This document shows, piece after piece, positions 4,752-30,639 of a stretch of 64,000 nucleotides of DNA. The position numbers and the translations under genes were made by a program. The stretch comes from Phycisphaerae bacterium (GTDB taxonomy: Bacteria; Planctomycetota; Phycisphaerae; Sedimentisphaerales; SM23-30): the NCBI GenBank assembly GCA_016342495.1, contig JAEIOG010000012.1, positions 2,832-66,831 of the forward strand, given 5' to 3'. The first letter of the stretch is position 1. Every line of letters starts with the position of its first letter. Below the pieces are notes generated by a model, which made no database searches, had not been told where the DNA came from, and worked only from the letters and a program-made list of their open reading frames with translations.

Positions 4752-4781
4752 ATATATCAAAGCCTCATCTAAATATTATAC

Positions 4782-6706: not shown

Positions 6707-6739
6707 TTTTTTTGCTCCAAAAAAGGTTATCTTTACAAT

Positions 6740-7121: not shown

Positions 7122-7159
7122 TTGATTTTTCCTTCAAAATAAGTGTTTTTCATTACAAC

Positions 7160-13746: not shown

Positions 13747-13820
13747 TAAACATATTTATTAACAAAAATAATTGAGCGGGCGGAACTCATTCCGTCCGTA
13801 TTAATCTGAAGGATATTGTT

Positions 13821-15044: not shown

Positions 15045-15153
15045 AAAAAGTTTCGCTAAAATGCATATTAGAAATGAGGTGACATATGACTTAAATTATT
15101 TACAAGTCCAATCGTATCATAGTATGAAATAGTAATTTTATAAGGACATCATT

Positions 15154-15717
15154 ATGAGTAATAATAAAACAAAAAAACGCCTACAAAAAAAGATCAGGCG
15201 TCAACGTAATTATCTAAAAAGTAAAAACTCCAATTTTAAAAAGGATAATGTTATGGAATCGCCATTTATCATGGTTGAAAACAATGTGACAGATCTCATA
15301 GGATCTAATTATTGGGAAACAGAATTAGCAAAAAAAGGTTTTTTCTATCTGTCAATAAATGCAGGTGCATTCAGACTATTGGTCCCTAAAAAAATGATGC
15401 ATTTAATCCCAGAGTTTAAAACGGGAGAGTATTGTATAATTTCAAAAGGACCATCTATGGAATCTATACACCCATTTGCTTTAGAACTACTTTTTGAAGA
15501 TCACACTTCATGTCCGTATCAACTTAATTTATGTGCAGGACAGGTAGATAGAAATCCATCGAAAACCGATGTAAACAAAAAACATAAACTCTCTATATGG
15601 ACTGAAGGATGCAACAAGGTGTTAGAGATGGATGCCTATTTTCGTACAGTTGGCAAACTACCGTATATGAAACCACTTGACAAAAACTTAAAGAAAGGAC
15701 AGTTAAACAATGAATAA
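15154..15717 (+). CDS. Hypothetical protein with a polybasic N-terminal tail
   Basis: 187 aa. N-terminus is MSNNKTKKRLQKKIRRQRNYLKSKNSNFKK. Overlaps the next gene by 8 nt. Confidence 0.55.
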   Translation: MSNNKTKKRLQKKIRRQRNYLKSKNSNFKKDNVMESPFIMVENNVTDLIGSNYWETELAKKGFFYLSINAGAFRLLVPKKMMHLIPEFKTGEYCIISKGPSMESIHPFALELLFEDHTSCPYQLNLCAGQVDRNPSKTDVNKKHKLSIWTEGCNKVLEMDAYFRTVGKLPYMKPLDKNLKKGQLNNE

Positions 15718-16459
15718 TAAAAGAGCCAACCGCAAAAACAGGAAATTCAAAAAAAATCGTATTAGAAATGCAAGATTGTCAGATTGGATTGAACCTGAAA
15801 GTAAAGACTGTGTTATTTATGTAGGAAGCAATTCTAAGGGTGATGTAGCAAATAGTAATATTATTAAAAAGCAGATAGAATTCCTGGAATCAAAGAAAAG
15901 TAGCCTTTGGAGAAATGGGAAATTGATTGAAATAAGTGACATTATGATTGCCGCACGTGAGCCAATCTCCTTGGAACAACATAGGGCAGAATATACAGCA
16001 AGTGTGATTCCTCAACTAAGCTCTGATGGCATACACCCTGAGGTTCTTAAGAATAATCTTCAGGAACTATATTTACAAGAGATAAACAAAATTCCTCTTT
16101 TTGAACATATCCGTTTAGACAGAAAAATGAGGAAAGATAAGAATACATCCATGGCAGATCGTCCCCCTTTTGCAGTAGTAACTATAAAAGACGAATGTAT
16201 TGTAAGGCTGGAATTCTACAAAGGACATGACAATCTATATAAACATTTAGACTTAAGATGCCCTACATTTTCTGAGAAAAAAATACCGGATACTTTCGTT
16301 GATGAAAATGGTTATGATGTCATTGAAAATGAATACTGGACCGCACTTCTATTTGGTATCAAAGTTAAAGACTTTAAAAACATAGTAGACTACGCTCACG
16401 AAGCATTGCTGTGTGATTACTGTAAATTTTCGTTTGAAGATCATTCGATACAAGGTTAA
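15710..16459 (+). CDS. Hypothetical protein with a polybasic N-terminal tail
   Basis: 249 aa. N-terminus is MNNKRANRKNRKFKKNRIRNAR. The start overlaps the previous stop. Confidence 0.55.
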   Translation: MNNKRANRKNRKFKKNRIRNARLSDWIEPESKDCVIYVGSNSKGDVANSNIIKKQIEFLESKKSSLWRNGKLIEISDIMIAAREPISLEQHRAEYTASVIPQLSSDGIHPEVLKNNLQELYLQEINKIPLFEHIRLDRKMRKDKNTSMADRPPFAVVTIKDECIVRLEFYKGHDNLYKHLDLRCPTFSEKKIPDTFVDENGYDVIENEYWTALLFGIKVKDFKNIVDYAHEALLCDYCKFSFEDHSIQG

Positions 16460-16498: not shown

Positions 16499-16522
16499 AG
16501 TGGTGGCCACCACTTTTGTTTG
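16499..16522 (+). terminator. Intrinsic terminator
   Basis: Perfect 16-bp palindrome agtggtggccaccact (16499-16514) followed by tttgtttg. Confidence 0.6.
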
Positions 16523-16755
16523 AAAACAATACATATTTAATACTGAAAATCTTAAAATTGAAGCTGATCTGTTGCCGAAGTGTTATTCAGGATATTTTAG
16601 TTAAGATAACATTAGTAATGTAAGTGCCATAAAAACAAACACTTAGATTTTTAATATTTTTCCAAAATTACATATTACACATTAACTTAATTTAGCTTAT
16701 AATAGACAATGTACAGAATATTTGGTATTAATTAACTCATGTGGAGGTATGAATT

Positions 16756-17193
16756 ATGGGTTGGACGCATTACTGGAAACGTGACATTAATCTGCCTGAA
16801 GAACCGTTTGAAATGGCAGTTAAGGACTGTAAAAAAGTATTCGATTCATTAGAAATTGAATTGGCAGGATCTTTGGGGCATGGCGATTGTGTCTATGATT
16901 CAGATGAATTGCTTTTCAATGGAGTTGCTGGGGTATGTTGTGAAGATTTTATGATCAAAAAAACACAAATGCCAAAACGTGAGGGGAGGGACTACGTCTC
17001 TTCATTTTGCAAGACCGAACATATGCCTTATGACATCTGTGTCCAAATAGCACTAATCATTCTCAAACATCACCTTGGAGATACTATGTCAGTGTACAGT
17101 GATGGTAAAGAGTCTGATTGGGACAACTCTCGTAAATTATGTCAGGAAAATCTTGGCTACGGAGAAGATTTCAAATTGGACATCGCTGATTAA
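16756..17193 (+). CDS. Hypothetical protein
   Basis: 145 aa, MGWTHYWKRD... GGAGG RBS (tgtggaggtatgaattATG). Confidence 0.55.
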   Translation: MGWTHYWKRDINLPEEPFEMAVKDCKKVFDSLEIELAGSLGHGDCVYDSDELLFNGVAGVCCEDFMIKKTQMPKREGRDYVSSFCKTEHMPYDICVQIALIILKHHLGDTMSVYSDGKESDWDNSRKLCQENLGYGEDFKLDIAD

Positions 17194-17228: not shown

Positions 17229-17480
17229 ATGTTAAATTTAGAAATCAATACCATTGATGATGTGAAACGTTTCTTCACTTATCTAGTGCAAGAGAAACAC
17301 TTGAATTTCCATCCAGATACAGATTTTAATGAGTATCTTGATAGTGACACTGACAAAGCTCTTTTTTCTGCTAAAGAAGCTAAACAAATGAATATTTTAA
17401 TGAATAATAGTTTTATTGTATGCCAAAAATGTAATTGCGACATTTTTCAATATGGAATAGAAGCCCTTATAAGCAAATGA
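17229..17480 (+). CDS. Hypothetical small protein
   Basis: 83 aa. AGAGGA RBS before the ATG. Confidence 0.5.
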   Translation: MLNLEINTIDDVKRFFTYLVQEKHLNFHPDTDFNEYLDSDTDKALFSAKEAKQMNILMNNSFIVCQKCNCDIFQYGIEALISK

Positions 17481-17528: not shown

Positions 17529-19088
17529 ATGCCCAACAAAAACAAAGTTAAAATTGTTGACCTATTCGCTGGCCCTGGTGGGCTAGGAGAAGGTTTTTCT
17601 TCGTTTAATGGACTAAATAATCGATTTAGCATTGGCGTATCCATTGAAAAAGATGAATATGCACACAAAACGTTATTATTACGCTCTTTTTATCGCCAAT
17701 TTGACCATCGAAAAGTCCCAGAGGAATATTATAAGTTCATAAAAACAGATAAATTCAGCGATGATGGACTCAAAGAACTACTAAATAACTATCCAATCCA
17801 GGGCCAGGCTGCTCGTGCTGAAACGATATGTCGTGAGTTGGGCAAAGATGATGATGACATATTTAGAGCAATCGACAAGGCTATTGGCGATGATATAAAA
17901 ATGAAAAAACCATGGGTTTTGATTGGAGGTCCGCCATGCCAAGCGTATTCCCTAGTGGGTAGAGCCAGAAATAAAGCAGATAAAAGCTATAGTTTAGATA
18001 ACGATGTTAGAAGTAAGCTTTATGTTGAGTATTTACGTGTAATAGCAAGATATCAGCCAGCCATTTTTGTCATGGAAAATGTCAAAGGTATGCTTTCTGC
18101 TGTTGTTAATGGCGATAGGATAATCAATCAGATCACATCTGACCTGAAAGCCCCATCTAAGGCTGTAATAAACTCTAAGACTTTCGCAGGAAAACGTCAT
18201 AAATACAAGCTATACTCTCTTACAATTAAACACGACCCTGAAGCACCATTTAAGCCTGAAGATTTTATAATTAAAAGTGAGAAATATGGCATTCCTCAAA
18301 GAAGGCATCGGGTAATTATTCTTGGAGTAAGAGAAGATTATGATCCAAATACAATCAGTCTTTTAAAGCTACAGAACAAGGTCTCCGTAAACGATGTTAT
18401 ACGTGATCTAAAACCAGTGTATAGCAGTTTTTCCAAACGAAATGTCAATCTTTCTAATTTGGATAATAGTTTAGCTCAACATAGCAGTTGGAAGAAACTC
18501 TTATGCTCCTTTTTTAGTAATGATGAGATATATGACCCTGACACAAGAGAGCAGATAGGTAAATTTCTGCCAAAACTGCAAAAAGCGAAAAAAAGTCATT
18601 TAAAACCTATACATAACGAGTGGTACAAAAATGACAATCTAAGTGGATATGCTTGTAATCACGAACCCAGAACTCATATTCGTTCTGATTTTTTGAGATA
18701 TTTTTTTGTATGTTGCTATGGCAAAGCACACAAAGCATCACCAAGATTAGATAACTTCCCAAAAGAATTGCTTCCTGCACATAAGAATATTAAAACTAAT
18801 AAATTCATAGATCGTTTTAAGGTTCAGCTTGAGAATGAGCCTTCAACAACCATTACTTCCCATATTTCCAAAGATGGGCATTATTACATACATCCCGACC
18901 CAAGTCAATGTAGAAGCCTTACTGTAAGAGAAGCGGCTAGGCTACAAACTTTTCCAGATGATTATTTCTTCTGTAGTAACAAAACACAACAATACCACCA
19001 AGTTGGCAATGCTGTTCCTCCGCTGTTAGCAAAACAAATAGCTGAAATCGTTTGGAATATATTAATAAAATCAGGCAAAGTAAAATGA
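17529..19088 (+). CDS. dcm: DNA (cytosine-5)-methyltransferase (candidate DrmMII of the adjacent DISARM-like operon)
   Basis: All C5-MTase motifs are visible: I DLFAGPGGLGEGF, IV GGPPCQAYS, VI ENVKGM, VIII QRRHRVIILG, IX-X REAARLQTFPDDY...GNAVPPLLA. Confidence 0.92.
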   Translation: MPNKNKVKIVDLFAGPGGLGEGFSSFNGLNNRFSIGVSIEKDEYAHKTLLLRSFYRQFDHRKVPEEYYKFIKTDKFSDDGLKELLNNYPIQGQAARAETICRELGKDDDDIFRAIDKAIGDDIKMKKPWVLIGGPPCQAYSLVGRARNKADKSYSLDNDVRSKLYVEYLRVIARYQPAIFVMENVKGMLSAVVNGDRIINQITSDLKAPSKAVINSKTFAGKRHKYKLYSLTIKHDPEAPFKPEDFIIKSEKYGIPQRRHRVIILGVREDYDPNTISLLKLQNKVSVNDVIRDLKPVYSSFSKRNVNLSNLDNSLAQHSSWKKLLCSFFSNDEIYDPDTREQIGKFLPKLQKAKKSHLKPIHNEWYKNDNLSGYACNHEPRTHIRSDFLRYFFVCCYGKAHKASPRLDNFPKELLPAHKNIKTNKFIDRFKVQLENEPSTTITSHISKDGHYYIHPDPSQCRSLTVREAARLQTFPDDYFFCSNKTQQYHQVGNAVPPLLAKQIAEIVWNILIKSGKVK

Positions 19089-19495
19089 CTGATACCATAA
19101 GCAAAGAAAAACGAAGCTGGAATATGTCCAGAATTAAAAACAAGGACACTAAGCCTGAGCTTATTGTTCGATCGATACTGCACTGTATGGGATATAGATT
19201 TCGCCTACATAGAAAAGACCTGCCAGGCAAACCCGACATTGTATTACCAAAATATAAAACCGCTATCTTTGTTAATGGCTGCTTTTGGCATAGACATAAA
19301 AATTGCAAATTTGCTTATATGCCTAAAACTAGAAAAGAATTCTGGCAAAAAAAATTCAATGACACAGTCAAACGTGACAAAACTAAAAAAGCCGAACTAA
19401 AAAAGCTCGGCTGGAAGATTATTATTATTTGGGAATGTGAAATTGTTAAGCGGAATATGATAAAAAGCCTCCTGAAAAAAGAATTATGTCAATAA
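19085..19495 (+). CDS. vsr: Very-short-patch repair endonuclease
   Basis: The Vsr pattern starts at the internal ATG: MTDTISKEKRSWNMSRIKNKDTKPELIVRSILHCMGYRFRLHRKDLPGKPDIVLPKYKTAIFVNGCFWHRH. ATG 19085-19087 overlaps the dcm TGA 19086-19088. Confidence 0.88.
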   Translation: MTDTISKEKRSWNMSRIKNKDTKPELIVRSILHCMGYRFRLHRKDLPGKPDIVLPKYKTAIFVNGCFWHRHKNCKFAYMPKTRKEFWQKKFNDTVKRDKTKKAELKKLGWKIIIIWECEIVKRNMIKSLLKKELCQ

Positions 19496-19508
19496 AATGT
19501 TATCCTGA

Positions 19509-21293
19509 TTAATCGTTAAAAAAACCTGCTTCTGGATTGACAAGTGTACCTATTAGTAATCCTCTATCAAGCAATCTATTGCCTTCCTCACAACAGGTTT
19601 CTGGCAATAGCAAACAGGTATGACATGCTGCCAAGTTTGAAGAATCAGACCCCTGACCTTTACTTTCTATACATACTGGATCAGATGAGCACCATCTGGA
19701 ATGATTGATTGCTTTTTTTAAAGTCCTTACTAAATTCTGTGGTTTTCCTTGTTGAACAAGACCTCCCATTGTCCCTTCAGTATCTCCGGCAGCGGTATAA
19801 ATAAGAATACCACTCATTGGTGATCCTCCATTTCTATTACAATAAATTCTTTCACTAAGAGATGAACTTCCATAACCACATTCAAAACTAAGTTGCCTGA
19901 TTAGAATATGGCTTATCGCATGTAGTAAGAAAAATTTATCAGGGAGATTTCTTTTATCTCTGTGCCAACTATCAGCCAAGATAGCTTCCCTTTCCAGCAA
20001 GTATTTAATACGCTTTTGTATTATGGGATTTTCTGACCATTTATCGACCTTTTCATCATTTAGTTTTAAGAAAATACCTTCCCCAAAAGTCCTTACCCCA
20101 GGAAGCCATGATTTCCTTTCTAAAGACAATGAACAAAGCGATTCATGGTCGGTTGTTAATCTTGAAAAACCTCGAAGAACTTTTGTAACTGAAAGTTTTT
20201 TTACCAATACAACATTAGAGAAAATATCAGAGAAAATATCGTATTCTAGAATATTCTGTTCATTTGTTATTAATTTGGATTTGTCAATATTTTCGCATGA
20301 TAACAATTCGTTATATTCATCAAGTCTATAATTAACTTCAATTTGATCGTTTGAGATATCTTTGTCATCAGTATCCAATTCAATTCCGTATAAACGATTT
20401 TCAAATTCTTCTATAAAGGCGACATCAATCCCAGCCCCTTCCATTGAAATTTCTATCACTAGTTTGTCGATAATTCCTTCGGCATTAGCTCTTTCTTTTA
20501 ATTTCTTGACTTTCTCAGTATCATTACAAAATAAATCTATTTTGTGCAGTTCTGATGTTTTTTTGCCCGAAGGTATAAGTATGCTACTAATCACTTCTGG
20601 AAAATATACATTTGAAGCACCTCTTTGCACAATTTTTGGTTTCTTTGCACAAACTTCTTTTCCCTCTGAACCAAGCCAAGGTCTTTCTCCGGTACACTTC
20701 ATTCCAGGCACGCCATTCTGAGAATATGCACTACTGATTCCTGTTTTTTTTCCACAATTAACACACATGACACGAATACCGCTTAACCCTGGGCCATAAG
20801 ATTCGAGTTTTAATTTGGGATTGTCGCAAATATCAGCTTTGTCTAAATCAGAATCCTCACTGGAGATTTTATGCACCCATTCTATCCACGGAAAATCTGA
20901 AATATGGCCATTTTCGCATGCGACAACAAATCGAACAGGAGTAGTATTGCTCCGATCACATTTCCAGCATTTGATTAACCCTTTTTTCTCGTCATACCAA
21001 TTTGCCTTTTGTAATGTTGAGCATGTTTTACATTGATACCACAGAGGGAACCTGATTGATAGTAATGGCAAGTTTGGGCTTTCACCACCATCAATAATTA
21101 CTGGTGGTTGAACAAAATACTTTACGTTCATTCGTTTAGCTAAACGGATATCGTCTATAATTTTATCTTTGCTAGAATATTTCCATTGGTCTAAACCTGC
21201 AAGCATAAGACTTTCTCCTGGAAAGTCTACCATTGCACCAATCCCAAATGTAGTTATAATCTGAGTACGCCTCAAAGGTCTCCAGCGTTTCAT
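19509..21293 (-). CDS. drmB: DUF1998-domain protein (DISARM DrmB-like)
   Basis: 594 aa. C-terminal Cys cluster AACHTCLLLPETCCEEGNRLLDRG is typical of DUF1998/MrfA Zn-binding domains. Additional CxxC pairs (CKTCSTL, CWKCD, CVNCGKK). A 4-nt overlap with the upstream helicase gene. Confidence 0.8.
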   Translation of the reverse strand: MKRWRPLRRTQIITTFGIGAMVDFPGESLMLAGLDQWKYSSKDKIIDDIRLAKRMNVKYFVQPPVIIDGGESPNLPLLSIRFPLWYQCKTCSTLQKANWYDEKKGLIKCWKCDRSNTTPVRFVVACENGHISDFPWIEWVHKISSEDSDLDKADICDNPKLKLESYGPGLSGIRVMCVNCGKKTGISSAYSQNGVPGMKCTGERPWLGSEGKEVCAKKPKIVQRGASNVYFPEVISSILIPSGKKTSELHKIDLFCNDTEKVKKLKERANAEGIIDKLVIEISMEGAGIDVAFIEEFENRLYGIELDTDDKDISNDQIEVNYRLDEYNELLSCENIDKSKLITNEQNILEYDIFSDIFSNVVLVKKLSVTKVLRGFSRLTTDHESLCSLSLERKSWLPGVRTFGEGIFLKLNDEKVDKWSENPIIQKRIKYLLEREAILADSWHRDKRNLPDKFFLLHAISHILIRQLSFECGYGSSSLSERIYCNRNGGSPMSGILIYTAAGDTEGTMGGLVQQGKPQNLVRTLKKAINHSRWCSSDPVCIESKGQGSDSSNLAACHTCLLLPETCCEEGNRLLDRGLLIGTLVNPEAGFFND

Positions 21294-24200
21294 TTTTCCA
21301 CCTCCATGTTATCTAAAACTCTTATTTCAGCTTCATTATCTACACCTCGCATGGAAGTCAAGGTTTGCCATGGTAATACTTTTTCCTCGGAATTATACCC
21401 TGGTGTACACATTAGCCAGTTACTTTCTGCTGATACCATACATCTTCCCCATTCTATTCCATTTGCCTTATTGCACCACATATTATATTTGTCCCAAAAT
21501 GTTTGTCTGAAATATTCCTTATGCTCAGGACATATATTATCACATCTTTCCAGCAACCATTCGCAAAGCTTTTCAGCTTTGTTTCTATTATTTTCATTAG
21601 CTATATCTTCAGGTGAAGACATATCCCACAAATGCCTTGCTGCAATAATGATCAAGGAATGAATCACTCTGTCAATAACAGGTATTGAAAAAGGGGTAAC
21701 ACTGGCAGGTTCGACATATTTATAAAATGAATTATGATATGCTTTAAAATGCTCATAATGAGACCTATCTCTTGGCTTTGAAACTCCATAGTAAGTTACA
21801 ACAAGCCCTGGCGATTTAGAACTTCTTCCAACCCTACTAGTTGCCTGAATATATTCTGAAGTCGTTTTTGGCTGTCCATTTACGAGCATCAACCCAAGTC
21901 TGGACACATCTATTCCTACTGACAGCATATTTGTTGACAGCACAATATTAGCAGTGTCAATTTTTTTGTCATAATTAATTTGGGAATAATCCTGAGACAT
22001 ATCTTTAATTATTTCAGGAATTTTTTCAGCATCAAGTCTACTTGTTAATTCTTTTATATTAAAAATATACCTAGTTTTTTCATCCGTATCAAGACAGTTT
22101 TTATGCCTTTCAACTATATCTCTCATGTGATCTGTTATTTCAGGCCTTATCAATGTCATAGACCTGCCTAGCTCTTTAATGCTATTGAAATACCATACAA
22201 GTGTCCAGTATGGATTTCTAATTGCATCTGAATCAGCATTTTTATCTATTTTGATATTGAAACTACTTTGAAGAATGGAAGCGACAATTCTTCTCAGAAA
22301 AGTAAGCGGTGAAGGTGCTGCTGTTGGTAATACGCCAAGATACAATCTGCCGGAACCTTGCTTTCCAAGATCTTCTTTTGCAAAGAAAGAATCAGATATA
22401 TCTAATCCTTGTGGGGGAAATATTGCTATATTTCTGTTGTACAAACTCCTGCATTGTTCTGCCGCACGACATGTTGTTGCTGTCGATGCGATAATTTTAG
22501 GTTTTCTACCTTTCTTTGAACAAAGCAATTCAATTACCGATTCATAAAGTCCCGCAATTGAACCCAGTGGCCCTGAAATAAGGTGTAATTCATCCTGAAT
22601 AATAAGGTCTGGACCTGGTTTGTTATGTTTCAACCCGAAAATAGCTCCAGCAGCATCATTCCAAGCAAGCATGGCAAACTTATCAACAGTGCCAATAATC
22701 AAAGTGGGAGGTGATTTATATATTTCTTCATCGACTACATGAACAGGAATTTCATTGTTTTTTTTACTAAATGGACATTTGTTTTCAGGACAACTAAAAA
22801 CAATCCCTCTAGTCCTGTTTTTATATCCACATGATTTGACATTCTTGTTATCCAGTTCAGTTCCGCACCATGGGCATGTGAGCAATTGTAACTTATTCCC
22901 GCCTCGTCCGTGTCTCCACTCATTAAATGCGGCTTTAGCCCCATTAATCTTGTTTGGCGAAAGTGATTGCCCGACCCAAAGTCCCAAAGAAAATGGTTCA
23001 TTGCCAAGTATTTCTGATTGCTGATTTCTAATTATTTCACATGCACATATAAGAGATGATGCTCTCTGAAATTGTTGTGCGGTCAGTAATCTTAACGTGT
23101 ATCTCATAAAAACAGAACAGCCAGAGTTGTGTTTATTCAATATACGTCTAACAAATATAGTGAAAGTAGATAAACCTAAATAAGCTTCGGTTTTCCCGCC
23201 ACCAGTAGGAAACCAGATCAGATCAACAATTTCTCTTGAGTGACTATATTTGTTTTCATTTTCCGAAATCATCCCTGGGATAGTCATAAGAATGAAGGCT
23301 AATTGAAAGCATCTCCATCTTCCTGAATTAATATCGGTAGGCTTATAGTCAGGCGGAAAAGGTATCCACGTATCACTCAAGGTTCTTCTGCTATTAGCAC
23401 CTCTATTGTAATGAACCTGTTGCATCAACATTGCCCTGTTCATTAATATAAACGCAGACAAAGCCTCTTTGTTCTTTGATAAAAATGTAATTCCATCAGA
23501 TATTCTTTTTTTACATTTTTCACACTTTTTAATGTTTTTTTCTGCGATTGCAATATATTCTTCTGGGATTTCAGTGGAAAGTTCACTCTTTCTGTGATTG
23601 ATCCATTCCTGATATTTTTCAGGTATTATTTTCAATAAATCGACAATGATATCTCTGTTTTTATCCAGTGACAATTCATACATACTGTATCCATCACCTT
23701 TTTCCTCTCGTGGTAGAACTGGCGAAATCTTGACTGTAGGCATAATGGATGTTTCTATTTCTGTCGCATTACCATCTGCATCTAAAATCCAGTCTGCTGC
23801 ACAACCATGACCGACGGCAAATGATTTCCTCTTCCTGTACAGCATTGATAATTCTTTTTCTTCATCCTCAGAATAATCGTTACTGTCTTGACTATAAACT
23901 TGGAAAAAAGAATTATCTTCAACAATAGAAACACTAAATCCTACTTGAAAAAAACAGTTTTTAGCATCTGAACGACGACTTCCCCCAGTTCCAATATTTT
24001 TGTTCAAAAGAGAAATCGTTACATAAGTTGTTCCACCTTTTGCTTTTCTAATATAGTAATGCACCCCCAGGTTTTCAAACACTGTTTTTTCACCACATAA
24101 GGGATATTTACTGTCTGGATCTTTCTCAATTTTAATAGTTACCGGTGTAATTTTTAATTCATTGTGAATCCATACCGGAACACTTTTGTCGCCTGCATTT

Positions 24201-24610
24201 TCATTAATAACTTTTTCATTTTTTTTCTTATAAATAGAAGCTTGGGGGAAAACCTGTATATTTTTTGTATTATTAGTTACGGCAAATGTCAAACCGATGG
24301 ATGAAGGTAAAATTGTATTGGCTAATTGTATAGAATGATCGAATGAATTGTCTTCAAAGGTAATCTTCCCAGTTGACTTTGGCTCATCAATTTCAGACGC
24401 TCCGCTATCCTCCTGCCTACTCCTAACACTTTCAGCAAGAGTCGCTTCAGTATCCTCTCCACTCAATCCCTGTGGAAAAAGAACTCCTGCCGAATAAAAA
24501 TCTAAAGGTGAAGTCCATGAAAACCGTTCTCCTTTACAAAGCGGTCCAACAGTTTCTTTCTTTATGGATTCTACTAATTTATCACGAAATTCTTTTGTAT
24601 GGTTTGCCAT
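21290..24610 (-). CDS. drmA: Superfamily-2 helicase (DISARM DrmA-like)
   Basis: 1106 aa. Motif I FPTGGGKTEAYLG, II IIQDELHLISGP, III IIASTATT, VI QATSRVGRS. The long N-terminal extension and the pairing with a separate DUF1998 gene match DrmA/DrmB. Confidence 0.82.
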   Translation of the reverse strand: MANHTKEFRDKLVESIKKETVGPLCKGERFSWTSPLDFYSAGVLFPQGLSGEDTEATLAESVRSRQEDSGASEIDEPKSTGKITFEDNSFDHSIQLANTILPSSIGLTFAVTNNTKNIQVFPQASIYKKKNEKVINENAGDKSVPVWIHNELKITPVTIKIEKDPDSKYPLCGEKTVFENLGVHYYIRKAKGGTTYVTISLLNKNIGTGGSRRSDAKNCFFQVGFSVSIVEDNSFFQVYSQDSNDYSEDEEKELSMLYRKRKSFAVGHGCAADWILDADGNATEIETSIMPTVKISPVLPREEKGDGYSMYELSLDKNRDIIVDLLKIIPEKYQEWINHRKSELSTEIPEEYIAIAEKNIKKCEKCKKRISDGITFLSKNKEALSAFILMNRAMLMQQVHYNRGANSRRTLSDTWIPFPPDYKPTDINSGRWRCFQLAFILMTIPGMISENENKYSHSREIVDLIWFPTGGGKTEAYLGLSTFTIFVRRILNKHNSGCSVFMRYTLRLLTAQQFQRASSLICACEIIRNQQSEILGNEPFSLGLWVGQSLSPNKINGAKAAFNEWRHGRGGNKLQLLTCPWCGTELDNKNVKSCGYKNRTRGIVFSCPENKCPFSKKNNEIPVHVVDEEIYKSPPTLIIGTVDKFAMLAWNDAAGAIFGLKHNKPGPDLIIQDELHLISGPLGSIAGLYESVIELLCSKKGRKPKIIASTATTCRAAEQCRSLYNRNIAIFPPQGLDISDSFFAKEDLGKQGSGRLYLGVLPTAAPSPLTFLRRIVASILQSSFNIKIDKNADSDAIRNPYWTLVWYFNSIKELGRSMTLIRPEITDHMRDIVERHKNCLDTDEKTRYIFNIKELTSRLDAEKIPEIIKDMSQDYSQINYDKKIDTANIVLSTNMLSVGIDVSRLGLMLVNGQPKTTSEYIQATSRVGRSSKSPGLVVTYYGVSKPRDRSHYEHFKAYHNSFYKYVEPASVTPFSIPVIDRVIHSLIIIAARHLWDMSSPEDIANENNRNKAEKLCEWLLERCDNICPEHKEYFRQTFWDKYNMWCNKANGIEWGRCMVSAESNWLMCTPGYNSEEKVLPWQTLTSMRGVDNEAEIRVLDNMEVEK

Positions 24611-24613
24611 TTT

Positions 24614-27600
24614 TTAGTTTCCATTTCTATGAATTCTGTCGACAATATTAATGGGAGCTGGAACTGTTATGGAGTCGAAATCATCTACTGTCAACACAAT
24701 CAAAGAATCGTCGATATTTACAATGTCATTGGTGTGACTACTCTCTATGAAACTGTGATATACTTTTCTGGCCAAAGATTTTGACGCTGTTAAATGAGCA
24801 CTCCTCACAAGTCCCATTGCTTCAATGCAATTACTGAAATTATTCCTAAGTTTGTTGCTTGATGTTAATTCAATGACAGCCGTTAAGACTTTTTCTGGCA
24901 TCATTGGAGAGAAAACTTCTTTATGCAACCAATTCGCAATTGTTGCTGTGGTTTTTTTTAGACCATGTTTTTGCAGTTTTTCTTGCAATTCTATAATAGA
25001 ACAATTATTAACTTTTTTGTATTCTAACAATTCCTTTCTCCAGCATGTTGCATGCTCCCGAGCTTGTTTTATAGTGCCAAACTTATCTGAATTATAACTG
25101 TCTGCAATAGTTCTTATGAGATCAGTGTCCGCGCCCGTATGAAATAATAATTTATCTCCAATGACAAGATCGGAAGGTGAAATAATATCTATTTCAGAAT
25201 CTTCTTCATAGGCATGATCACCAATTAAATGGGTCACTCTTTTCGCTCTATAACCATCAGATAACCATGCATAATAACCATTTGAAAATAAGAAAAATAA
25301 AGCATTTACTTTTTCTGCACTATCTCCATTCACATTAAAATCAGATATGCGTTTATGAGCGTTAGTATGGATATAAAAGGTATCATTAGCAGAAAACTCA
25401 TCGATTCGATTTTTATTGCAAGATGGGATATTTCTTTTAGTACTCTTGCCAGTTAAGGTAGAGTAAACACTGAGTCCTTTATCGTTTAATCGAATAGATG
25501 TTTTTGTAGAAAGATATTTCTCGTTTTCCAGCTCATAAAACATTAGTGTAACTGACGAAGAAATCGGAGGAGATATCAATTTATTCATATTACCCTCATT
25601 AAGCCATGCAGGAATCACCAAGTGTTTAATCTCAGGACTTGTGTCAATTTCGTTTATTTTAATAAAATTTCCATTGAAACTCATTTCTTTTGAAATTGAA
25701 TGATCAATGCAACTTTGTTGCAATTCTTCGATATTGGTACTATTACGACAAACAATAGTGCATTTTTCTTTACTCATCAGCTCGAATAACAATTCAGCTT
25801 TTGGATTGTTTTTTGCTAGAGCTGATGATAGGGCTTCCACACTATCCATCACTTCACGCAGAGTAGCTTTCACTTTCGAAAAGCCTGTGATTTCATTAGC
25901 TTCATTATTTACTTGAATTATCGAATTTTGTATTTGTTTTCTCAAAGCAGAATTTAATGAAAATGTCATAACACACTGAAGAAGCTGGTTGTATACTTTC
26001 CACATATCAATAAATAGAGCTTTCGGCAAATCCTCAGCTTCCACAAGCCTTCTAAGTTTCACCAGTGATTCATTACACGCATTAACTGCTAAGTTATGCT
26101 CATAGTTGTGAATTACTGATGTTTTTACATTAGACTTTACTCCCTTGGATATTTTTGACTCTGATTTTCCAATTACGCCATTGCTTTCATTTTGGAATCT
26201 AAAAACTTCAAAAATTTCATTATTGTCCCAAAAAATATTATCAAAACCGTAGTTTTCTAAGTGGATTTTCTTAAGTTTACTCTCTGGCGTAACAGTGATA
26301 ATGCGAATGTCTTCATTAATCAGTTCTTCCAAGCATGAGTCATTATCGCAAATATTCGTTGTTCCTGTATCAATAATAATTAGTTTAATATTTTCCGGAT
26401 TAGCAAAAACAGTGCTGTCAAAAATATTTTCCAAGCTTTCAGTAAATAATAGCGACGGAATTAAATTACCGTAAATATTTCCCCAAGTATATATTTTCCC
26501 CCCCTTTCGTATGATACCTGTAGGAAGAACATTACATATCTTTTTATCAAAGAGCCTGACTCCCTTACAAAACTCTTGACTTTTTTTAGTAACAACTATG
26601 ATATTAAAAGAATATTTATGGAATTGGATTGGGATATCCGTTTGAAGCAACCGATCTATAGGTTCAATTTTTTGTGAATCAAAAGAAGTTACAGACTTAA
26701 TTCTTTCGTTAGATTTAGCTTTTCCAGCAGGCATAATCCGAGCTAGATTTCTAATACTTGCAGGCCATTTTCTCATACAAGCAGATTTTGCAGGTTTAAC
26801 TGAAAAATATGTTTTTCCGTTTAATTCTTCATACCCTCCAAATATCATTACTTGCCCGTTATACTTGATCTTGTCACCTTTTTTATAGTCGTCAAGATTG
26901 ACATTTTCTTCTCTTGGCAAAAGGTTATACTGTGCTAATGTTGCAAGGAGTCCTGTCAAGTGAGGTGTGATACCAGTGCTGGGCAATATCAGGTTTATTC
27001 CCTTTTTATGTTCACCCGAAATCGCATTATTTATAATACCTGAGTTTAATAAAGAATACTCTGAAAGTGCATTGGGATAATCGCAATCATTAAGAATTGT
27101 ATGAGCAAGAAACCCATTTTGCTTTATCACGCAGTTTAATGCTTCAGTAATTTTACATGATTCTGGAAACGCTTTTTGTTCTGCCAGCAGTATTGCGTAC
27201 CTGTCATCAAGAATCCCAACAACTCCTAAATCATTTGGTATAACATCATTTACTTCTATTAGATATGATAAGCCCGCTTTAATCCATTCCATATTGCAGT
27301 CATCTCTATTATTCAAAAGGCAATCAATAAAATGCGTAACAATATTCTTAAATCTCCAGAAAAAACTGGTCTTACTTAAACATTCTATTTCAGAAATATA
27401 TTTTTGGGAATTGCTTATTAGAACATCGTCACAGGGAAATTCGTTTGTATCTATGTACTTTGTCAGCTGTTTTTCGATTTCTTCTTTATGTTTATCTGAC
27501 AGTATTTCGCAATTGTACGTTAAATGATTTCCCAAAATCCCATTTGCTTCTTTAATAGCAATTGAGAGAGCATATTGATCATCGTGTAATCCATCTTCTT

Positions 27601-27871
27601 CGTTATCATCAACTAAATCATCTTCTTTAATTAAGTACAATAACGCTCCTCTTGCGATTACTTTTACTCTTTCATCGCAGTATAATAAATAATAACACAA
27701 CGTGACAGCATCCCTGACTATGATAAACTCAAATCCATTTCTGAATTTTGCTGAATACAGATAATGAGTTACTTCTTTAACAATATCACTATCACTGACA
27801 TATTCGTTATCCAAAAGTTTTTTTTGAATATTTGCTATTTTTTGCTTTTCACTGTATGTAAATGACCGCAT
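24614..27871 (-). CDS. Large protein of unknown function in the DrmE position of a class-2 DISARM operon
   Basis: The track ORF starts at an alternative start codon (TTG) at 27892. The ATG at 27871 is preceded by GGGAGGTG with a 6-nt spacer. No Walker, nuclease or MTase motifs seen. Two DUF1232-like segments (ALLYLIKEDDLVDDNEEDGLHDDQYAL and GLSYLIEVNDVIPNDLGVVGILDDRYAILLA). Only a 3-nt gap to drmA. Confidence 0.6.
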   Translation of the reverse strand: MRSFTYSEKQKIANIQKKLLDNEYVSDSDIVKEVTHYLYSAKFRNGFEFIIVRDAVTLCYYLLYCDERVKVIARGALLYLIKEDDLVDDNEEDGLHDDQYALSIAIKEANGILGNHLTYNCEILSDKHKEEIEKQLTKYIDTNEFPCDDVLISNSQKYISEIECLSKTSFFWRFKNIVTHFIDCLLNNRDDCNMEWIKAGLSYLIEVNDVIPNDLGVVGILDDRYAILLAEQKAFPESCKITEALNCVIKQNGFLAHTILNDCDYPNALSEYSLLNSGIINNAISGEHKKGINLILPSTGITPHLTGLLATLAQYNLLPREENVNLDDYKKGDKIKYNGQVMIFGGYEELNGKTYFSVKPAKSACMRKWPASIRNLARIMPAGKAKSNERIKSVTSFDSQKIEPIDRLLQTDIPIQFHKYSFNIIVVTKKSQEFCKGVRLFDKKICNVLPTGIIRKGGKIYTWGNIYGNLIPSLLFTESLENIFDSTVFANPENIKLIIIDTGTTNICDNDSCLEELINEDIRIITVTPESKLKKIHLENYGFDNIFWDNNEIFEVFRFQNESNGVIGKSESKISKGVKSNVKTSVIHNYEHNLAVNACNESLVKLRRLVEAEDLPKALFIDMWKVYNQLLQCVMTFSLNSALRKQIQNSIIQVNNEANEITGFSKVKATLREVMDSVEALSSALAKNNPKAELLFELMSKEKCTIVCRNSTNIEELQQSCIDHSISKEMSFNGNFIKINEIDTSPEIKHLVIPAWLNEGNMNKLISPPISSSVTLMFYELENEKYLSTKTSIRLNDKGLSVYSTLTGKSTKRNIPSCNKNRIDEFSANDTFYIHTNAHKRISDFNVNGDSAEKVNALFFLFSNGYYAWLSDGYRAKRVTHLIGDHAYEEDSEIDIISPSDLVIGDKLLFHTGADTDLIRTIADSYNSDKFGTIKQAREHATCWRKELLEYKKVNNCSIIELQEKLQKHGLKKTTATIANWLHKEVFSPMMPEKVLTAVIELTSSNKLRNNFSNCIEAMGLVRSAHLTASKSLARKVYHSFIESSHTNDIVNIDDSLIVLTVDDFDSITVPAPINIVDRIHRNGN

Positions 27872-28235
27872 TCCAGACACCTCCCTGAACAACTCAGTAA
27901 ACTTCTTACATGCGACAAACTATCTTAATTTCCTCGCATTATGAAATAAAATCTCAATTATTTGAAAAACCGCCTTCTAGAGCGTAAAACCCTCTTAAGG
28001 TCATACCAAAACTACATTTTACCTACCTAGCCAGCTAAATGCAACTATTCAGAACATAATTTTCAAAATAATACTTCTCCCATAAAATCCTTTATCACAA
28101 CCCCCCACCAGCCTCACCAGAGCCTACTAACCCCATATTACCCTAATATATGGCTCATATATATAAAGAACCACCAGAAAGATCTGGTAAAGCTGTGGTA
28201 CATACTGATCTAATAATCATTTTAAAAACGTCTTT

Positions 28236-28383: not shown

Positions 28384-28656
28384 ATGAAAGGAAAAGATAA
28401 AGTAGGGCAGTACCAAACATTAAGCTATTTCGCAGATGGGGCACCTGTCCCAGACTTGCTAACAGAGGAAGAGGCGATCCGTTTTTTACGATTGGATGAT
28501 GGGGGAACTAAATATCCAGCCACAACCTTGGAGTATTACCGCTCAGAAGGGATGCTCAGAGGTACCAGAGTAGGTAAAAGGCTTAGATATCTAAAATCAG
28601 AGCTAATCAATTTTCTTGAAATTCAAACCCAAAGAACAAATGGAGAAGTTTCCTGA
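28384..28656 (+). CDS. xis: Excisionase-type helix-turn-helix DNA-binding protein
   Basis: 90 aa. LLTEEEAIRFLRLD...GTRVGKRLRYLKSELINFLE (MerR/excisionase-like HTH). Directly upstream of the integrase. Confidence 0.7.
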   Translation: MKGKDKVGQYQTLSYFADGAPVPDLLTEEEAIRFLRLDDGGTKYPATTLEYYRSEGMLRGTRVGKRLRYLKSELINFLEIQTQRTNGEVS

Positions 28657-28719
28657 TTGCCGCTTGAATGTGATTTATCGCAGCGGTAGTATTGGGCACT
28701 AATTTTGAGGAATTCAGAT

Positions 28720-29949
28720 ATGCATATACGAAACGATGTGGTTGTAAGTAAAAATAAAAGAAGCAAAAGTCGCCCCTGGACTGTTCGCTGGTGGGGTAAA
28801 TATGATATAATTATTGAAAAGCAGCCCAGGCACAGCAAGTCATTTTCTACCAAGAAAAAGGCTGAAAAATATGCTCAATCATTAAAAGATGACATCTATG
28901 ATGGCATCTCGGTTGAACCAATGAATATAACAGTAGCTAAGCTCTGGGAGAAATATCTTAACATCGAAAAGAATAAACTTGAGCCTTCCAGTCTCAGCAA
29001 CTATCGACAAACGGCAGGCAGGCTCATAAATTATTTTGGTTCACATAGGAATATTAAATCAATTAATAAAGAACAGGCTGAAGAATTTCTCGCTGATATT
29101 AAACTCTTAGACGGCAAAGGTCCTTCGGACTCTACCAGAGCCAGGCACTTGAGAAATGCCAAGCTCATTTTCAACAAAGCGGTCGAATGGGAATATATCC
29201 GAAAGAATCCCTTTAAGGGGATTAAATTAGGCAAACCGGAAACTGAAGACTGGCGTTTTATTACCCCAGATGAGTTTAAATGCTTAATAAATGCAATTGA
29301 CTCAATCCCAATCCGAATCAAGGTTGAAAAACTGGGCTACGAACGTAAAACCATGCTCAAAGCCTTTTACTCGATTATGTATGGATGTGGTTTAAGATTT
29401 GGGGAAGCTGCCAATTTGATGTGGGACAACGGAAATATTGATTTTATTAACTCAAAAATCAATTTATCCAATAGGAATAGTAGTAAAGAGTTACCTCCCT
29501 TCAAGTTGAAAAATCATCAAGCCAGAACTATTCATGCCCCAAATTGGGTTATGGGTCCACTAAAAAACCTGAAAGAAATATCCAGTCCCAATAGTCCCTT
29601 TGTCTTTTTGAATCCAACAAGGCTGGGTTATGTAAAAGCCAAATGGCAGGAACTCAAAGAGCAGGGCAGAGAAGATAAATGGCTCAACAGTATGATGATT
29701 CTTAATACCCACAGAAAATTTCATCTTTACTGTCAGAAAGCTGGTATCATTACTAACGATAGATTGTCGGTTCATTGCTTAAGGAAATCTTATGGAACCA
29801 ATTTAGCTGACGCCGGAACTCCAGTTCATACATTAAAAGATATGATGGGGCACTCTGATATAAAAACTACAATGTCTTTTTACATCAAATCAACCGATGC
29901 TAACAAGCAAAAAGCAGTTGAAGCTTTGGAGCGGATGATGGGGGCGTAA
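28720..29949 (+). CDS. int: Tyrosine integrase (phage/ICE type)
   Basis: The track start at 28705 is an alternative start codon (TTG); the first ATG is at 28720. Catalytic boxes GLRFGEAANLMW, HCLRKSYGTNL and GHSDIKTTMSFYIK. Adjacent to the tRNA gene. Confidence 0.88.
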   Translation: MHIRNDVVVSKNKRSKSRPWTVRWWGKYDIIIEKQPRHSKSFSTKKKAEKYAQSLKDDIYDGISVEPMNITVAKLWEKYLNIEKNKLEPSSLSNYRQTAGRLINYFGSHRNIKSINKEQAEEFLADIKLLDGKGPSDSTRARHLRNAKLIFNKAVEWEYIRKNPFKGIKLGKPETEDWRFITPDEFKCLINAIDSIPIRIKVEKLGYERKTMLKAFYSIMYGCGLRFGEAANLMWDNGNIDFINSKINLSNRNSSKELPPFKLKNHQARTIHAPNWVMGPLKNLKEISSPNSPFVFLNPTRLGYVKAKWQELKEQGREDKWLNSMMILNTHRKFHLYCQKAGIITNDRLSVHCLRKSYGTNLADAGTPVHTLKDMMGHSDIKTTMSFYIKSTDANKQKAVEALERMMGA

Positions 29950-30174
29950 GAATAAAATATTTTATCATTTTAATTATTTTCATTACTCGTTCCCCAAAAA
30001 AATATTTCTCTCAACCTGAAGTTAGAATCTCATGATAATGTCACCAATGATAAACATTTACTGCTTATTACACTTTTTGAGTATTTAAACAAGTAAAAAT
30101 GTTAAAATAGATAGTTTTGATATTAGCATCACCAACTCCCTCCTCACCAGCTATCCACTCCCAACTAAAATAAA

Positions 30175-30194
30175 CTGGACGATATCTGGACGAT
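30175..30194. repeat. Tandem direct repeat CTGGACGAT-at-CTGGACGAT (candidate integrase arm-type sites)
   Basis: ctggacgat at 30175-30183 and again at 30186-30194, between the int stop and tRNA-Phe. Confidence 0.5.
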
Positions 30195-30228
30195 TTACCT
30201 TTGAAAAACTCAAGAAATTAATCATTTA

Positions 30229-30269
30229 AAATAAAAAACCCTCATTTCTGCATTAGAAACGAGGGTTTT
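30229..30269 (-). terminator. Intrinsic terminator just downstream of tRNA-Phe
   Basis: Arms aaaaccctc (30235-30243) and gagggtttt (30261-30269), with an inner tttct/agaaa extension. On the minus strand the stem is followed by a U-run. Confidence 0.65.
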
Positions 30270-30273
30270 CATA

Positions 30274-30346
30274 TGGGCAGAACTGGACTTGAACCAGCGA
30301 CACAGGGATTTTCAATCCCCCGCTCTACCAACTGAGCTACCCGCCC
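30274..30346 (-). tRNA. tRNA-Phe (anticodon GAA)
   Basis: The reverse complement folds by hand into a 73-nt cloverleaf: acceptor GGGCGGG/UCUGCCC, D-arm GCUC/GAGC, anticodon stem GGGGA/UCCCU with loop UUGAAAA, T-arm GCUGG/CCAGU with loop UUCAAGU, discriminator A. CCA is not encoded. Confidence 0.9.
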
Positions 30347-30639
30347 AGGGTAAATTTGAATGACAATTTGCTCACTCAAATTGAGCATAGTATTTTACTG
30401 ATACAGGTTGTTTCATGCAAGGAAATTTTAGCAATTTTCTAAAAAATCATCTCTTTAATGGCAACAATGGGCATAAAATAGCCGAATTTTGATTCGTTTC
30501 TCCCTTTTCTTCATTAAAAAATAACTTTTCAGTCAAAGTAGTATGTTCATTTTAATCATTATCTTGACCTTAGCTGACGGTCTGTTAGAATGTAACAGGC
30601 TACTTCAATGATAAACTTTGTTATAGTGATGGTCTATTT

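Follow-up and report, generated by a model that had tools for sequence, protein, structure and literature searches.

A predicted class 2 DISARM locus without DrmC, with a linked methyltransferase-Vsr pair, in a Phycisphaerae genome

Described systems and the layout of the locus

The class 2 DISARM system of Bacillus paralicheniformis 9945a has the gene order drmE-drmA-drmB-drmC-drmMII (Ofir et al. 2018, as relayed in PMC9142583, PMC9252829 and PMC11529989). DrmC is dispensable and often missing in DISARM (PMC9142583); the PADLOC rule for type II DISARM demands it (PMC9252829). Methylation also bears on the helicase core, since 5mC lowers the ATPase activity of DrmAB (PMC9142583). Two further systems serve for comparison. 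These are the class 1 DISARM of Serratia sp. SCBI, known from cryo-EM (7S9V/7S9W), and the dcm-vsr pair of E. coli (CCWGG Dcm; Vsr structure 1CW0), in which the two genes overlap by several codons.

The locus described here belongs to a Phycisphaerae MAG. It spans approximately positions 17529-27892 of a 64-kb stretch of DNA, referred to below as the window. On the minus strand, drmE, drmA and drmB are closely packed into a single operon, and their catalytic and zinc motifs are intact. A plus-strand operon, drmMII and vsr, converges on it and encodes an intact C5-methyltransferase (MTase) and a canonical Vsr (Table 1). The gap between drmE and drmA is 3 nt. The helicase and DUF1998 modules are separate genes, and the start of drmB overlaps the stop of drmA by 4 nt (ATGA). 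The convergent stops of vsr (19495) and drmB (19509) leave 13 bp between them. The ORF list and the sequence agree with the preliminary description of this DNA on all coordinates, overlaps and the convergent gap. With ORFs of 594-1106 aa in DNA of 35% GC, and PADLOC matches from 3e-223 to 1e-31, the genes are well past chance.

Like the B. paralicheniformis system, as summarized in the accounts cited above, the locus has DrmE, a split YprA-type DrmA, a DUF1998/MZB DrmB and a DrmMII-type C5-MTase. Unlike that system as those accounts give it, the window has no drmC, its MTase gene is convergent with drmB from the other strand and is coupled to a vsr, and DrmE is long, with an N-terminal extension of about 270 aa that contains DUF1232.

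The sole PDB sequence matches of the DrmA and DrmB pair are their Serratia homologs (7s9v_A, 6e-153, and 7s9v_B, 2e-73). The two systems presumably share an ssDNA-loading helicase core inhibited by 5mC. In contrast to class 1, the window has neither DrmD (SNF2) nor DrmMI (N6A MTase). Because the alignment of the window DrmA starts after the Serratia trigger loop (residue 228), nothing in it can be aligned with the class 1 N-terminal domain and trigger loop.

As in E. coli, vsr overlaps the 3' end of the C5-MTase gene, here by 4 nt, and the catalytic, zinc and intercalating residues are conserved. Unlike the E. coli pair, that of the window is part of a defence system carried by a mobile island, and its MTase differs from Dcm in its target-recognition region.

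Table 1. Predicted features of the locus and its flanks, in window positions.
Feature	Position	Strand	Matched by
145-aa ORF, no family match, upstream of drmMII	16756-17193	+	
83-aa ORF, no family match, upstream of drmMII	17229-17480	+	
drmMII, C5 cytosine DNA methyltransferase, 519 aa	17529-19088	+	PADLOC, Pfam
vsr, very-short-patch T:G mismatch endonuclease, 136 aa	19085-19495	+	TIGR00632, Pfam, PDB
drmB, DUF1998/MZB zinc-binding DrmA partner, 594 aa	19509-21293	-	PADLOC, NCBIfam, Pfam, PDB
drmA, SF2 YprA-family helicase, 'short' DrmA form, 1106 aa	21290-24610	-	PADLOC, NCBIfam, PDB
drmE, long form, 1085 aa	24614-27871	-	NCBIfam NF038316
HTH_17 excisionase-like ORF	28384-28656	+	Pfam HTH_17
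Tyrosine integrase	28705-29949	+	Pfam Phage_integrase
tRNA-Phe	30273-30347	-	ARAGORN

Identity of the core genes

DrmA matches the PADLOC DrmA model at 3.1e-223 and scores 973.6 against a cutoff of 950 for the NCBIfam equivalog NF038325 (DISARM_DrmAS). Its helicase motifs I, II, III and VI are intact (GGGKTE at residue 470, DELH at 673, STATT at 709 and QATSRVGR at 922). DrmB matches the PADLOC DrmB model (5.4e-84), NCBIfam DrmB_fam (455.7, cutoff 240) and Pfam MZB. Its zinc cluster consists of CHTC at residue 557 and CC at 567, and every Cys or His position that is invariant over 32 homologs is present. The helicase motifs and the CHTC...CC cluster that had been noted previously are thus found in the genes to which they were assigned.

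An identity as MrfAB, Druantia DruE or Dpd DpdJ was considered and rejected. The match to DpdJ is weak (1.9e-11, against 3e-223 for DrmA), and the two genes are unfused. Among the PADLOC models, DrmA gives no Druantia signal and no DruE match. The only match bearing the Mrf name is the MZB/DUF1998 domain of DrmB (Pfam 'MrfA Zn-binding domain'), a domain expected in DrmB. No non-DISARM family therefore fits the pair better, and DrmA passes the cutoff of its DISARM equivalog.

The third core gene had been described as an unknown protein of 1085 aa. Its size and place were right, but it is a divergent long-form DrmE. The ORF runs from 24614 to 27892, and the likely start is the ATG at 27871, which has a GGAGG Shine-Dalgarno sequence ahead of it. 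NCBIfam NF038316 (DrmE_fam, cutoff 80) matches aa 270-1065 at 243.6 bits. Neither Pfam DrmE_C nor the PADLOC DrmE models match this protein, so that NCBIfam alone identified it; DrmE_C is matched in 28 of 40 long-form relatives. A word-indexed homolog search returned just two to three proteins, even with an eight-sequence profile. An exhaustive HMMER search of 1.84 billion representative proteins was needed, and it yielded 470 relatives, the nearest at 28-29% identity.

DrmE begins with the all-helical extension, continues with an SF2-helicase-like body and ends with the DrmE_C region. The DUF1232-like motif lies at aa 199-228 (E=0.016), and DUF1232 is matched in 38 of the 40 long-form relatives. 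The AF2 model has a pLDDT of 83.3, and its Foldseek matches are the helicases MDA5, RIG-I, Hef and XPB. The body has no Walker A motif. The predicted fold can be called SF2-helicase-like, with a degenerate P-loop, with good confidence, and DrmE is probably an ATPase-dead helicase-like protein. This fold hints that class 2 DrmE and class 1 DrmD (SNF2) may have analogous roles.

Since the large ORF is DrmE by NCBIfam, the locus is, judged by sequence, a class 2 DISARM (DrmE, DrmA, DrmB, DrmMII) without DrmC. The earlier reading as a class 2 core is borne out, as curated models match each of these four proteins.

Related loci, DrmC and the methyltransferase-Vsr pair

Related loci were sampled at species level with a DrmB profile. 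The 80 loci counted below are the best 80 of at least 591 DrmB matches, and all fractions refer to these.

The absence of DrmC extends well beyond the locus. No HxKxxxxD (PLD) motif occurs in any ORF of at least 60 aa in the whole window; the pattern agrees with the HKD motif of Nuc. No ORF scanned in the window matches the PADLOC DrmC model either. The earlier observation that no PLD-type ORF lies in or beside the locus thus holds through all 64 kb, including the DNA just outside the region scanned at that time, and a PLD gene could sit elsewhere in the genome. In the best 80 loci, a regex and Pfam scan of 149 neighbouring ORFs found a PLD gene in none. Five plasmid DISARM loci (H1, H3, H6, H21 and H22), sought as a positive control for drmC, also have no annotated PLD gene.

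DrmC is treated here as accessory rather than disqualifying, because the literature cited above calls it dispensable and often missing. Since it is missing from 80 of 80 relatives, its absence is ancestral for the clade and not a recent loss, and does not mark an unusual variant, as had been supposed. The PADLOC rule needs DrmC and the PADLOC DrmE models miss the DrmE of the window, so strict rule-based tools would not call the system complete. An entire clade of class 2 DISARM will go unseen or be ranked too low by finders that require DrmC or use present DrmE HMMs.

DrmE was found in 67 of the 80 best loci and a C5-MTase within 3 kb in 59, so that the three-gene core does co-occur with a C5-MTase. 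Vsr is linked in 42. It is adjacent to the MTase in 19 of these, fused to it in 11 and elsewhere in the operon in nine; in three no MTase was seen. The occurrence of Vsr goes with that of the MTase (odds ratio 8, p=0.017) and shows no association with the other nuclease-bearing gene, that of the NERD-helicase (p=1.0), in Fisher tests whose significance is overstated because the 80 loci are not phylogenetically independent. The MTase, Vsr or both converge on drmB in eight other loci of the sample. In 11 of the 80, a Vsr-domain gene lies on the same strand no more than 250 nt past drmB, and in one of them (L010) it overlaps the drmB stop. The arrangements of Vsr include MTase fusions and genes translationally coupled to drmB.

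A NERD and UvrD-like helicase gene is present in 44 of the 80 best loci (for example L003, L004 and L083). Like the window, these loci have DrmE, DrmA, DrmB, a C5-MTase and often Vsr, with no DrmC. Unlike them, the window lacks the gene of about 580 aa that encodes the NERD-helicase, which lies there between drmE and drmA or after drmB.

The suggestion of a DISARM variant with a Dcm/Vsr module therefore stands in part. The MTase does appear to be the DrmMII of the system; the linked Vsr and the convergent MTase, both taken as unusual, recur among relatives. Since DrmC absence and a linked Vsr are both common there, the locus is fairly ordinary for a known kind of phage-defence system. Taken alone it matters little, as one more class 2 DISARM on a tRNA-Phe island, here divergent and from the Planctomycetota. 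The frequent link between DISARM and Vsr, including MTase-Vsr fusions, is apparently undescribed in the literature.

The MTase carries motifs I, IV (PCQ), VI (ENV), VIII (QRRHR) and X (GNAVPP). Its top PADLOC model is DrmMII (PDLC02649, 1.9e-91, 305 bits); the best generic model, MTase_II, reaches 231 bits, and Pfam DNA_methylase matches at 3e-49. Three further DISARM loci (L009, L012 and L074) have full-length homologs of it with 41-43% identity. In L012, a deltaproteobacterial MAG, the closest homologs of both proteins (MTase 43%, Vsr 63% identity) form an ATGA-overlapped pair, co-directional and contiguous with drmE and only 44 bp upstream of it. In L009, an MTase of the same subfamily abuts drmE. 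The position of the L012 pair directly upstream of drmE indicates that the MTase/Vsr module belongs to the DISARM system. By its sequence relationships, then, the convergent C5-MTase is the predicted DrmMII and not an unrelated neighbour.

Genes for Vsr usually accompany those for C5-MTases, which they can stabilise (PMC12907096). The vsr ORF extends from 19052 to 19495, and the real start is the ATG at 19085. This ATG forms with the TGA of the MTase gene the ATGA overlap (19085-19088) by which the two genes are translationally coupled, as had been reported. Vsr scores 151 against the TIGR00632 cutoff of 97.85 and matches Pfam Vsr (5.7e-32), PADLOC Vsr (1e-31) and E. coli Vsr in the PDB (1cw0, 6e-30). 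Residues D51, F67, W68, H69, W86 and D97 and the Zn ligands are conserved, and D51, H69, W86 and D97 are kept in 44 of 44 DISARM-linked Vsr domains. The intercalating F67, W68 and W86 and the catalytic residues match the E. coli pattern, which points to specificity for T:G mismatches rather than general nicking.

A mechanism can be proposed from published DISARM work and Vsr biology. The self-mark would be a host motif methylated by DrmMII. DrmA and DrmB would form a helicase complex that loads on invading DNA, either unmethylated or with 5'-overhang ssDNA, and its ATPase would be damped by 5mC. DrmE, predicted to be an ATPase-dead SF2-helicase-like protein, may act as the class 2 accessory protein. 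Interference without a dedicated PLD nuclease could proceed by a replication block or through a borrowed host nuclease. Vsr would nick 5' of the T in T:G mismatches left by deamination of 5mC made by DrmMII, allowing short-patch repair to begin. Such repair would offset the mutational cost of an island-borne methylase and may also make losing that methylase costly. The MTase-Vsr pair would then be a portable sub-module of DISARM and not an independent neighbour. That about half of these loci have a linked Vsr suggests that the mutations brought about by the DISARM methylase carry a cost on which selection really acts.

Alternative readings and the mobile island

The reading favoured here is likely on the evidence of sequence: a functional-looking, DrmC-less class 2 DISARM that resides, with the MTase-Vsr pair as its portable sub-module, on a low-GC island integrated at tRNA-Phe. 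A different role for Vsr is suggested by related ARMADA and Druantia-like systems, whose YprA-family helicases carry fused nuclease domains of the Vsr type, PD-(D/E)xK (PMC12458937). Vsr might replace the PLD nuclease DrmC as the effector and nick invader DNA unwound by DrmAB. None of the best 80 loci has a PLD gene, and the Vsr-domain gene of the 11 loci mentioned above, including the overlapping one, fills the usual DrmC slot after drmB. However, it is with the C5-MTase that Vsr goes, not with a lack of the other nuclease-bearing gene, and about half of the surveyed loci have no Vsr at all. The window vsr is also coupled to the MTase on the strand opposite drmB, and its residues and TIGR00632 score are those of an E. 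coli-type Vsr. Since Vsr and the other nuclease gene are not anticorrelated, a role as substitute for DrmC was rejected, and it is quite unlikely. It is also unlikely, if a little less so, that Vsr is an integrated part of DISARM, acting either as a nickase on DrmAB-engaged DNA in DrmC-less systems or as an enforcer that makes loss of DrmMII lethal. If true, such integration would account for the occurrence of Vsr in about half of class 2 loci, in at least five gene arrangements.

The preliminary description had also allowed for two modules lying side by side. The pair would then be an orphan or repair-type Dcm/Vsr abutting a DISARM core whose cognate methylase is missing or elsewhere. Many genomes do have stand-alone dcm-vsr pairs (PMC12907096). 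The pair here is encoded on the strand opposite drmB, probably in a transcription unit of its own that also holds two unrelated small ORFs, and two further MTase genes (N6/N4) lie 2.5-5 kb from it. Those genes and their neighbours have no counterpart in any DISARM locus, the only exception being a weak match (E about 4e-6) to one ORF on the margin of L024. The C5-MTase, in contrast, has DrmMII as its best model, and a C5-MTase accompanies 59 of the best 80 cores within 3 kb. Convergence on drmB recurs in eight loci, and the same subfamilies adjoin drmE in L012 (MTase and Vsr) and L009 (MTase). Independence of the two modules is accordingly improbable. Still more improbable is decay, in which a five-gene DISARM would have lost drmC, been rearranged as the island evolved and left behind a non-functional remnant. 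DrmC is indeed missing, the gene order is unlike that of the B. paralicheniformis prototype, and DrmE is very divergent. Every gene is nevertheless full length relative to its homologs, with all catalytic and zinc motifs intact, and the lack of DrmC is shared by all of the best 80 relatives and hence ancestral. The tight ATGA overlap, found twice, indicates that translational coupling has been maintained.

The 145-aa and 83-aa ORFs upstream of drmMII have no family match in PADLOC, Pfam or NCBIfam and no homologs in the best 80 loci. A promoter-like site (16674-16703) and a terminator-like hairpin (16499-16514) lie upstream of both, so that the two ORFs probably share a transcription unit with drmMII; their membership in the system is uncertain. 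The upstream N6/N4 MTase cluster was rejected as a part of DISARM for its lack of counterparts in related loci, the weak match in L024 aside. For a 626-aa ORF at 10037-11917, searches of PDB, Pfam, PADLOC and NCBIfam returned nothing.

The excisionase-like ORF, the integrase and the tRNA gene (28384-30347) make up the right end of the mobile island that carries DISARM. No second att site, as a copy of the tRNA-Phe 3' end, was found in the window. The GC content rises at about 30 kb, from 0.33-0.37 on the left to 0.40-0.49 on the right.

Gene content and family assignment

Judged by gene content at the sequence level (DrmE, DrmA, DrmB and DrmMII), the locus is a class 2 DISARM system. It fails the PADLOC rule for type II DISARM solely on DrmC, which that rule demands (PMC9252829). 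DrmC is treated as non-essential in the experimental DISARM literature.

The genes are arranged in two convergent groups. As read from the nucleotide sequence, drmE-drmA-drmB form an intact, translationally coupled operon, with a spacing of 3 nt between drmE and drmA and an ATGA overlap at the drmA/drmB junction. By the same reading the C5-MTase is intact, with motifs I, IV, VI, VIII and X all visible in translation, and is coupled to a canonical Vsr, whose ATG shares ATGA with the MTase TGA stop. The start of drmE is most likely the ATG at 27871, behind GGAGG, giving 1085 aa. In translation, DrmA carries the helicase motifs GGGKTE (470), DELH (673), STATT (709) and QATSRVGR (922), and DrmB the cysteine motifs CHTC (557) and CC (567). 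The ORF coordinates of the preliminary description were reproduced by a six-frame ORF list, and its motifs, overlaps and gaps verified by translation. Its failure to see a PLD-type gene holds for the whole 64-kb window, where HxKxxxxD is absent from all ORFs of 60 aa or more.

The stop codons of vsr and drmB converge with 13 bp between them. Since this gap holds no terminator, the convergent transcripts probably overlap. A terminator-like hairpin with a T-run lies at 19390-19412 (minus), about 100 nt past the drmB stop and antisense within the vsr ORF.

Features of the window (drm and vsr genes from the six-frame ORF list)
Feature	Position	Strand	Remark
Second tyrosine recombinase	170-1084		low-GC island
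Macro-domain protein	1145-1666		weak DarG-like match
LRR/dockerin/CBM protein	1734-4040		low-GC island
DUF6876 protein	6771-7121		low-GC island
Scaffold-like protein	7398-8444		low-GC island
Separate R-M-like cluster	10037-16459		upstream of DISARM locus
N6_N4 DNA methylases of R-M-like cluster	12133-13746; 13821-15044		
drmMII	17529-19088	+	519-aa ORF
vsr	19052-19495	+	ATG at 19085
drmB	19509-21293	-	594 aa
drmA	21290-24610	-	1106 aa
drmE	24614-27892	-	maximal ORF, 1092 aa
HTH_17 excisionase-like ORF	28384-28656		directly right of drmE
Tyrosine integrase	28705-29949		right of drmE
tRNA-Phe	30273-30347	-	right of integrase

PADLOC HMMs match DrmA (E=3.1e-223), DrmB (5.4e-84) and Vsr (1.3e-31). 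For the MTase, the best PADLOC model is DrmMII (PDLC02649, 1.9e-91, 305 bits); generic type II MTase models reach 231 bits at best. Curated NCBIfam cutoffs are likewise exceeded by DrmA (DISARM_DrmAS equivalog, 973.6 vs 950), DrmB (DrmB_fam, 455.7 vs 240) and Vsr (TIGR00632, 151 vs 97.85). The only PDB sequence matches of DrmA and DrmB are the chains of Serratia 7S9V (6e-153 and 2e-73). The large protein upstream of drmA had seemed unknown because the PADLOC DrmE models and Pfam DrmE_C miss it; its described size of 1085 aa stands, and its identity is given by NCBIfam DrmE_fam (NF038316, residues 270-1065, 243.6 vs a cutoff of 80).

The helicase/DUF1998 pair might instead have fitted an Mrf-type or Druantia family better. 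These do not compete: Druantia gave no match, and the sole Mrf-named match is the Pfam MZB/DUF1998 domain of DrmB, as expected for DrmB. Matches of DrmA to DpdJ are weak (1.9e-11).

DrmA contains an acidic, low-complexity stretch at residues ~48-92 (window 24330-24470). It precedes the region aligned to Serratia DrmA, which begins at residue 228, past the Serratia trigger loop. Speculatively, this stretch might be the trigger-loop analogue of short DrmA proteins.

Related loci and the MTase/Vsr pair

The value of the analysis lies in by-products of a survey: a DrmC-less clade, the frequency of Vsr and NERD-helicase genes, and a predicted fold for DrmE. A DrmB profile built from 32 sequences was searched against one-genome-per-species contigs, yielding at least 591 confirmed loci. 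The best 80 of these, with 10-kb flanks, formed the sample (handles L001 and so on); ORFs were called, and iterated HMMs were built from the window proteins. DrmE occurs in 67/80 loci and Vsr in 42; in 59 a C5-MTase lies no more than 3 kb from the core.

The PLD nuclease signature HxKx4D...GSxN is present in no ORF of the 80 loci, and when the 149 unassigned ORFs closest to the cores were scanned with Pfam, the families with at least two members included no PLD family. Plasmid examples likewise lack DrmC; one from Lactiplantibacillus plantarum has C5-MTase, DrmE, DrmA and DrmB alone. The absence of DrmC is therefore the rule in the surveyed clade, in a sample which, being the 80 best matches and lying outside the Bacillus prototype clade, contains no positive control for DrmC detection.

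A gene of ~580 aa combining NERD with a UvrD-like SF1 helicase (Pfam NERD/UvrD_C; PADLOC 'RTasNERD-Hel') is found in 44 of the 80 loci and is absent from the window. It lies between drmE and drmA or directly 3' of drmB (L003:4804-6579, L047:12278-14032, L083:6125-7864 and 41 more loci). In these 44 DrmC-less class 2 loci its product may serve as nuclease partner. A literature search found no account of it in DISARM loci, nor any description of Vsr as a frequent DISARM companion.

Vsr adjoining a C5-MTase is a textbook arrangement, and the preliminary description had allowed for two independent modules sitting side by side. The survey speaks against this. The MTase/Vsr pair is part of the DISARM system, because core and C5-MTase co-occur in most loci, because full-length homologs of the unusual 519-aa MTase (41-43% identity) lie in three DISARM loci (L009, L012, L074), in L009 abutting drmE, and because L012 has the pair itself. 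There the gene after the MTase encodes a Vsr 63% identical to that of the window, with the same ATGA junction and 'MTD' start, and the pair is co-directional with drmE and 44 bp upstream of it. Convergence also recurs: MTase and/or Vsr converge on drmB in 8 other loci, with a smallest gap of 8 bp (L015). The MTase, with or without Vsr, is thus a portable sub-module that has been reshuffled many times, and its position on the opposite strand in the window is one such case.

The 42 Vsr genes show at least five arrangements. Vsr may follow the MTase as an adjacent gene, as in the window, or precede it. Alternately, the two form single-polypeptide fusions in either order (11 loci), seen within Bacillota DISARM loci (L029:2050-3606, L031:10019-11464 and 9 more). 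Finally, Vsr may lie directly 3' of drmB, with the MTase at the opposite operon end (e.g. L003, L004, L006) or convergent (L001, L007, L048). In two loci an AspBHI-like 5mC-dependent (type IV) restriction gene stands between drmB and vsr (L003:11880-13058, L006:10707-11891), in a system producing 5mC of its own.

The data fit Vsr as a repair partner of the methylase rather than a replacement effector nuclease. Among 46 loci with complete flanks, Vsr accompanies 21/34 MTase-bearing and 2/12 MTase-less loci (odds ratio 8, Fisher p=0.017) and shows no association with the NERD-helicase gene (p=1.0), both p-values being indicative only since the loci are not phylogenetically independent. The window Vsr aligns to E. 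coli Vsr at 6e-30. Residues D51, H69, W86 and D97 are kept in 44/44 Vsr domains, and F67 and W68 in nearly all; these are the catalytic and mismatch-intercalating residues of the E. coli enzyme. That Vsr replaces the missing effector is accordingly improbable, but the idea is worth keeping because YprA helicases of ARMADA and Druantia-like systems, which are related, carry fused Vsr-type nuclease domains (PMC12458937).

A mechanism can be proposed by analogy. DrmAB would load on a 5' overhang or unmethylated ssDNA, defence would need ATP hydrolysis, lowered by 5mC, and a dedicated nuclease would be non-essential (after PMC9142583). Vsr would nick T:G mismatches arising from deaminated DrmMII-made 5mC, which would curb the mutational burden that an incoming methylase imposes, and may penalise methylase loss (after PMC12907096 and the E. 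coli paradigm).

Predicted fold of DrmE

Searched exhaustively with HMMER, 1.84 billion representative proteins yielded 470 DrmE relatives, many of them ~1100-aa 'long forms' and the nearest only 28-29% identical. The identical sequence is on deposit for a Phycisphaerae MAG, where it is labelled a hypothetical protein. Aligned with 40 long-form relatives, DrmE gave a confident AlphaFold2 model (pLDDT 83.3, pTM 0.81), which Foldseek matches to SF2 helicases at probabilities of ~1.0: MDA5 (2.3e-5), DRH-1, XPB, RIG-I, Dicer helicase, RapA and Hef (target-normalised TM-score 0.42). Despite this match, Walker A is absent in 39/40 relatives, the motif I position being degenerate ('LPxxGPxPFLxGF'). 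DrmE is thus probably a helicase-like protein that lacks ATPase activity and serves as a scaffold or binds DNA, possibly the class 2 analogue of the class 1 SNF2 protein DrmD.

Residues 1-270 (window 27070-27871) form an all-helical N-terminal extension of the long forms. It contains DUF1232 (PF06803; motif YLxxxxDVIxDxLGIVGYLDD) in 38/40 relatives (best 1.5e-12; window protein E=0.016), and the window protein has a further degenerate copy upstream of the first. In 17 surveyed loci, from Actinomycetota, Nitrospirae, cyanobacteria and others, DrmE is split into adjacent genes of ~330 and ~515 aa (e.g. L046:1880-4395).

Island and neighbouring genes

The DISARM system rides on an integrative island, as indicated by the excisionase-like ORF, tyrosine integrase and tRNA-Phe directly right of drmE. 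The GC content is 0.32-0.40 in the first ~30 kb (0.33-0.37 in the DISARM stretch) vs 0.40-0.49 to the right. No second copy of the tRNA-Phe 3' end was found within the window, so the left end of the island lies outside it.

Besides its two N6_N4 MTases, the R-M-like cluster comprises a 626-aa protein without detectable family and two unknown ORFs, of 187 and 249 aa. Nothing in the related DISARM loci corresponds to this cluster save one weak MTase match (E~4e-6) in an ORF at the L024 edge. A ~44-nt repeat ending TATCACTCTGGCA occurs in intergenic positions among minus-strand small ORFs (4739-4754, 5886-5929, 6727-6770, 7147-7190), perhaps as a shared promoter or operator.
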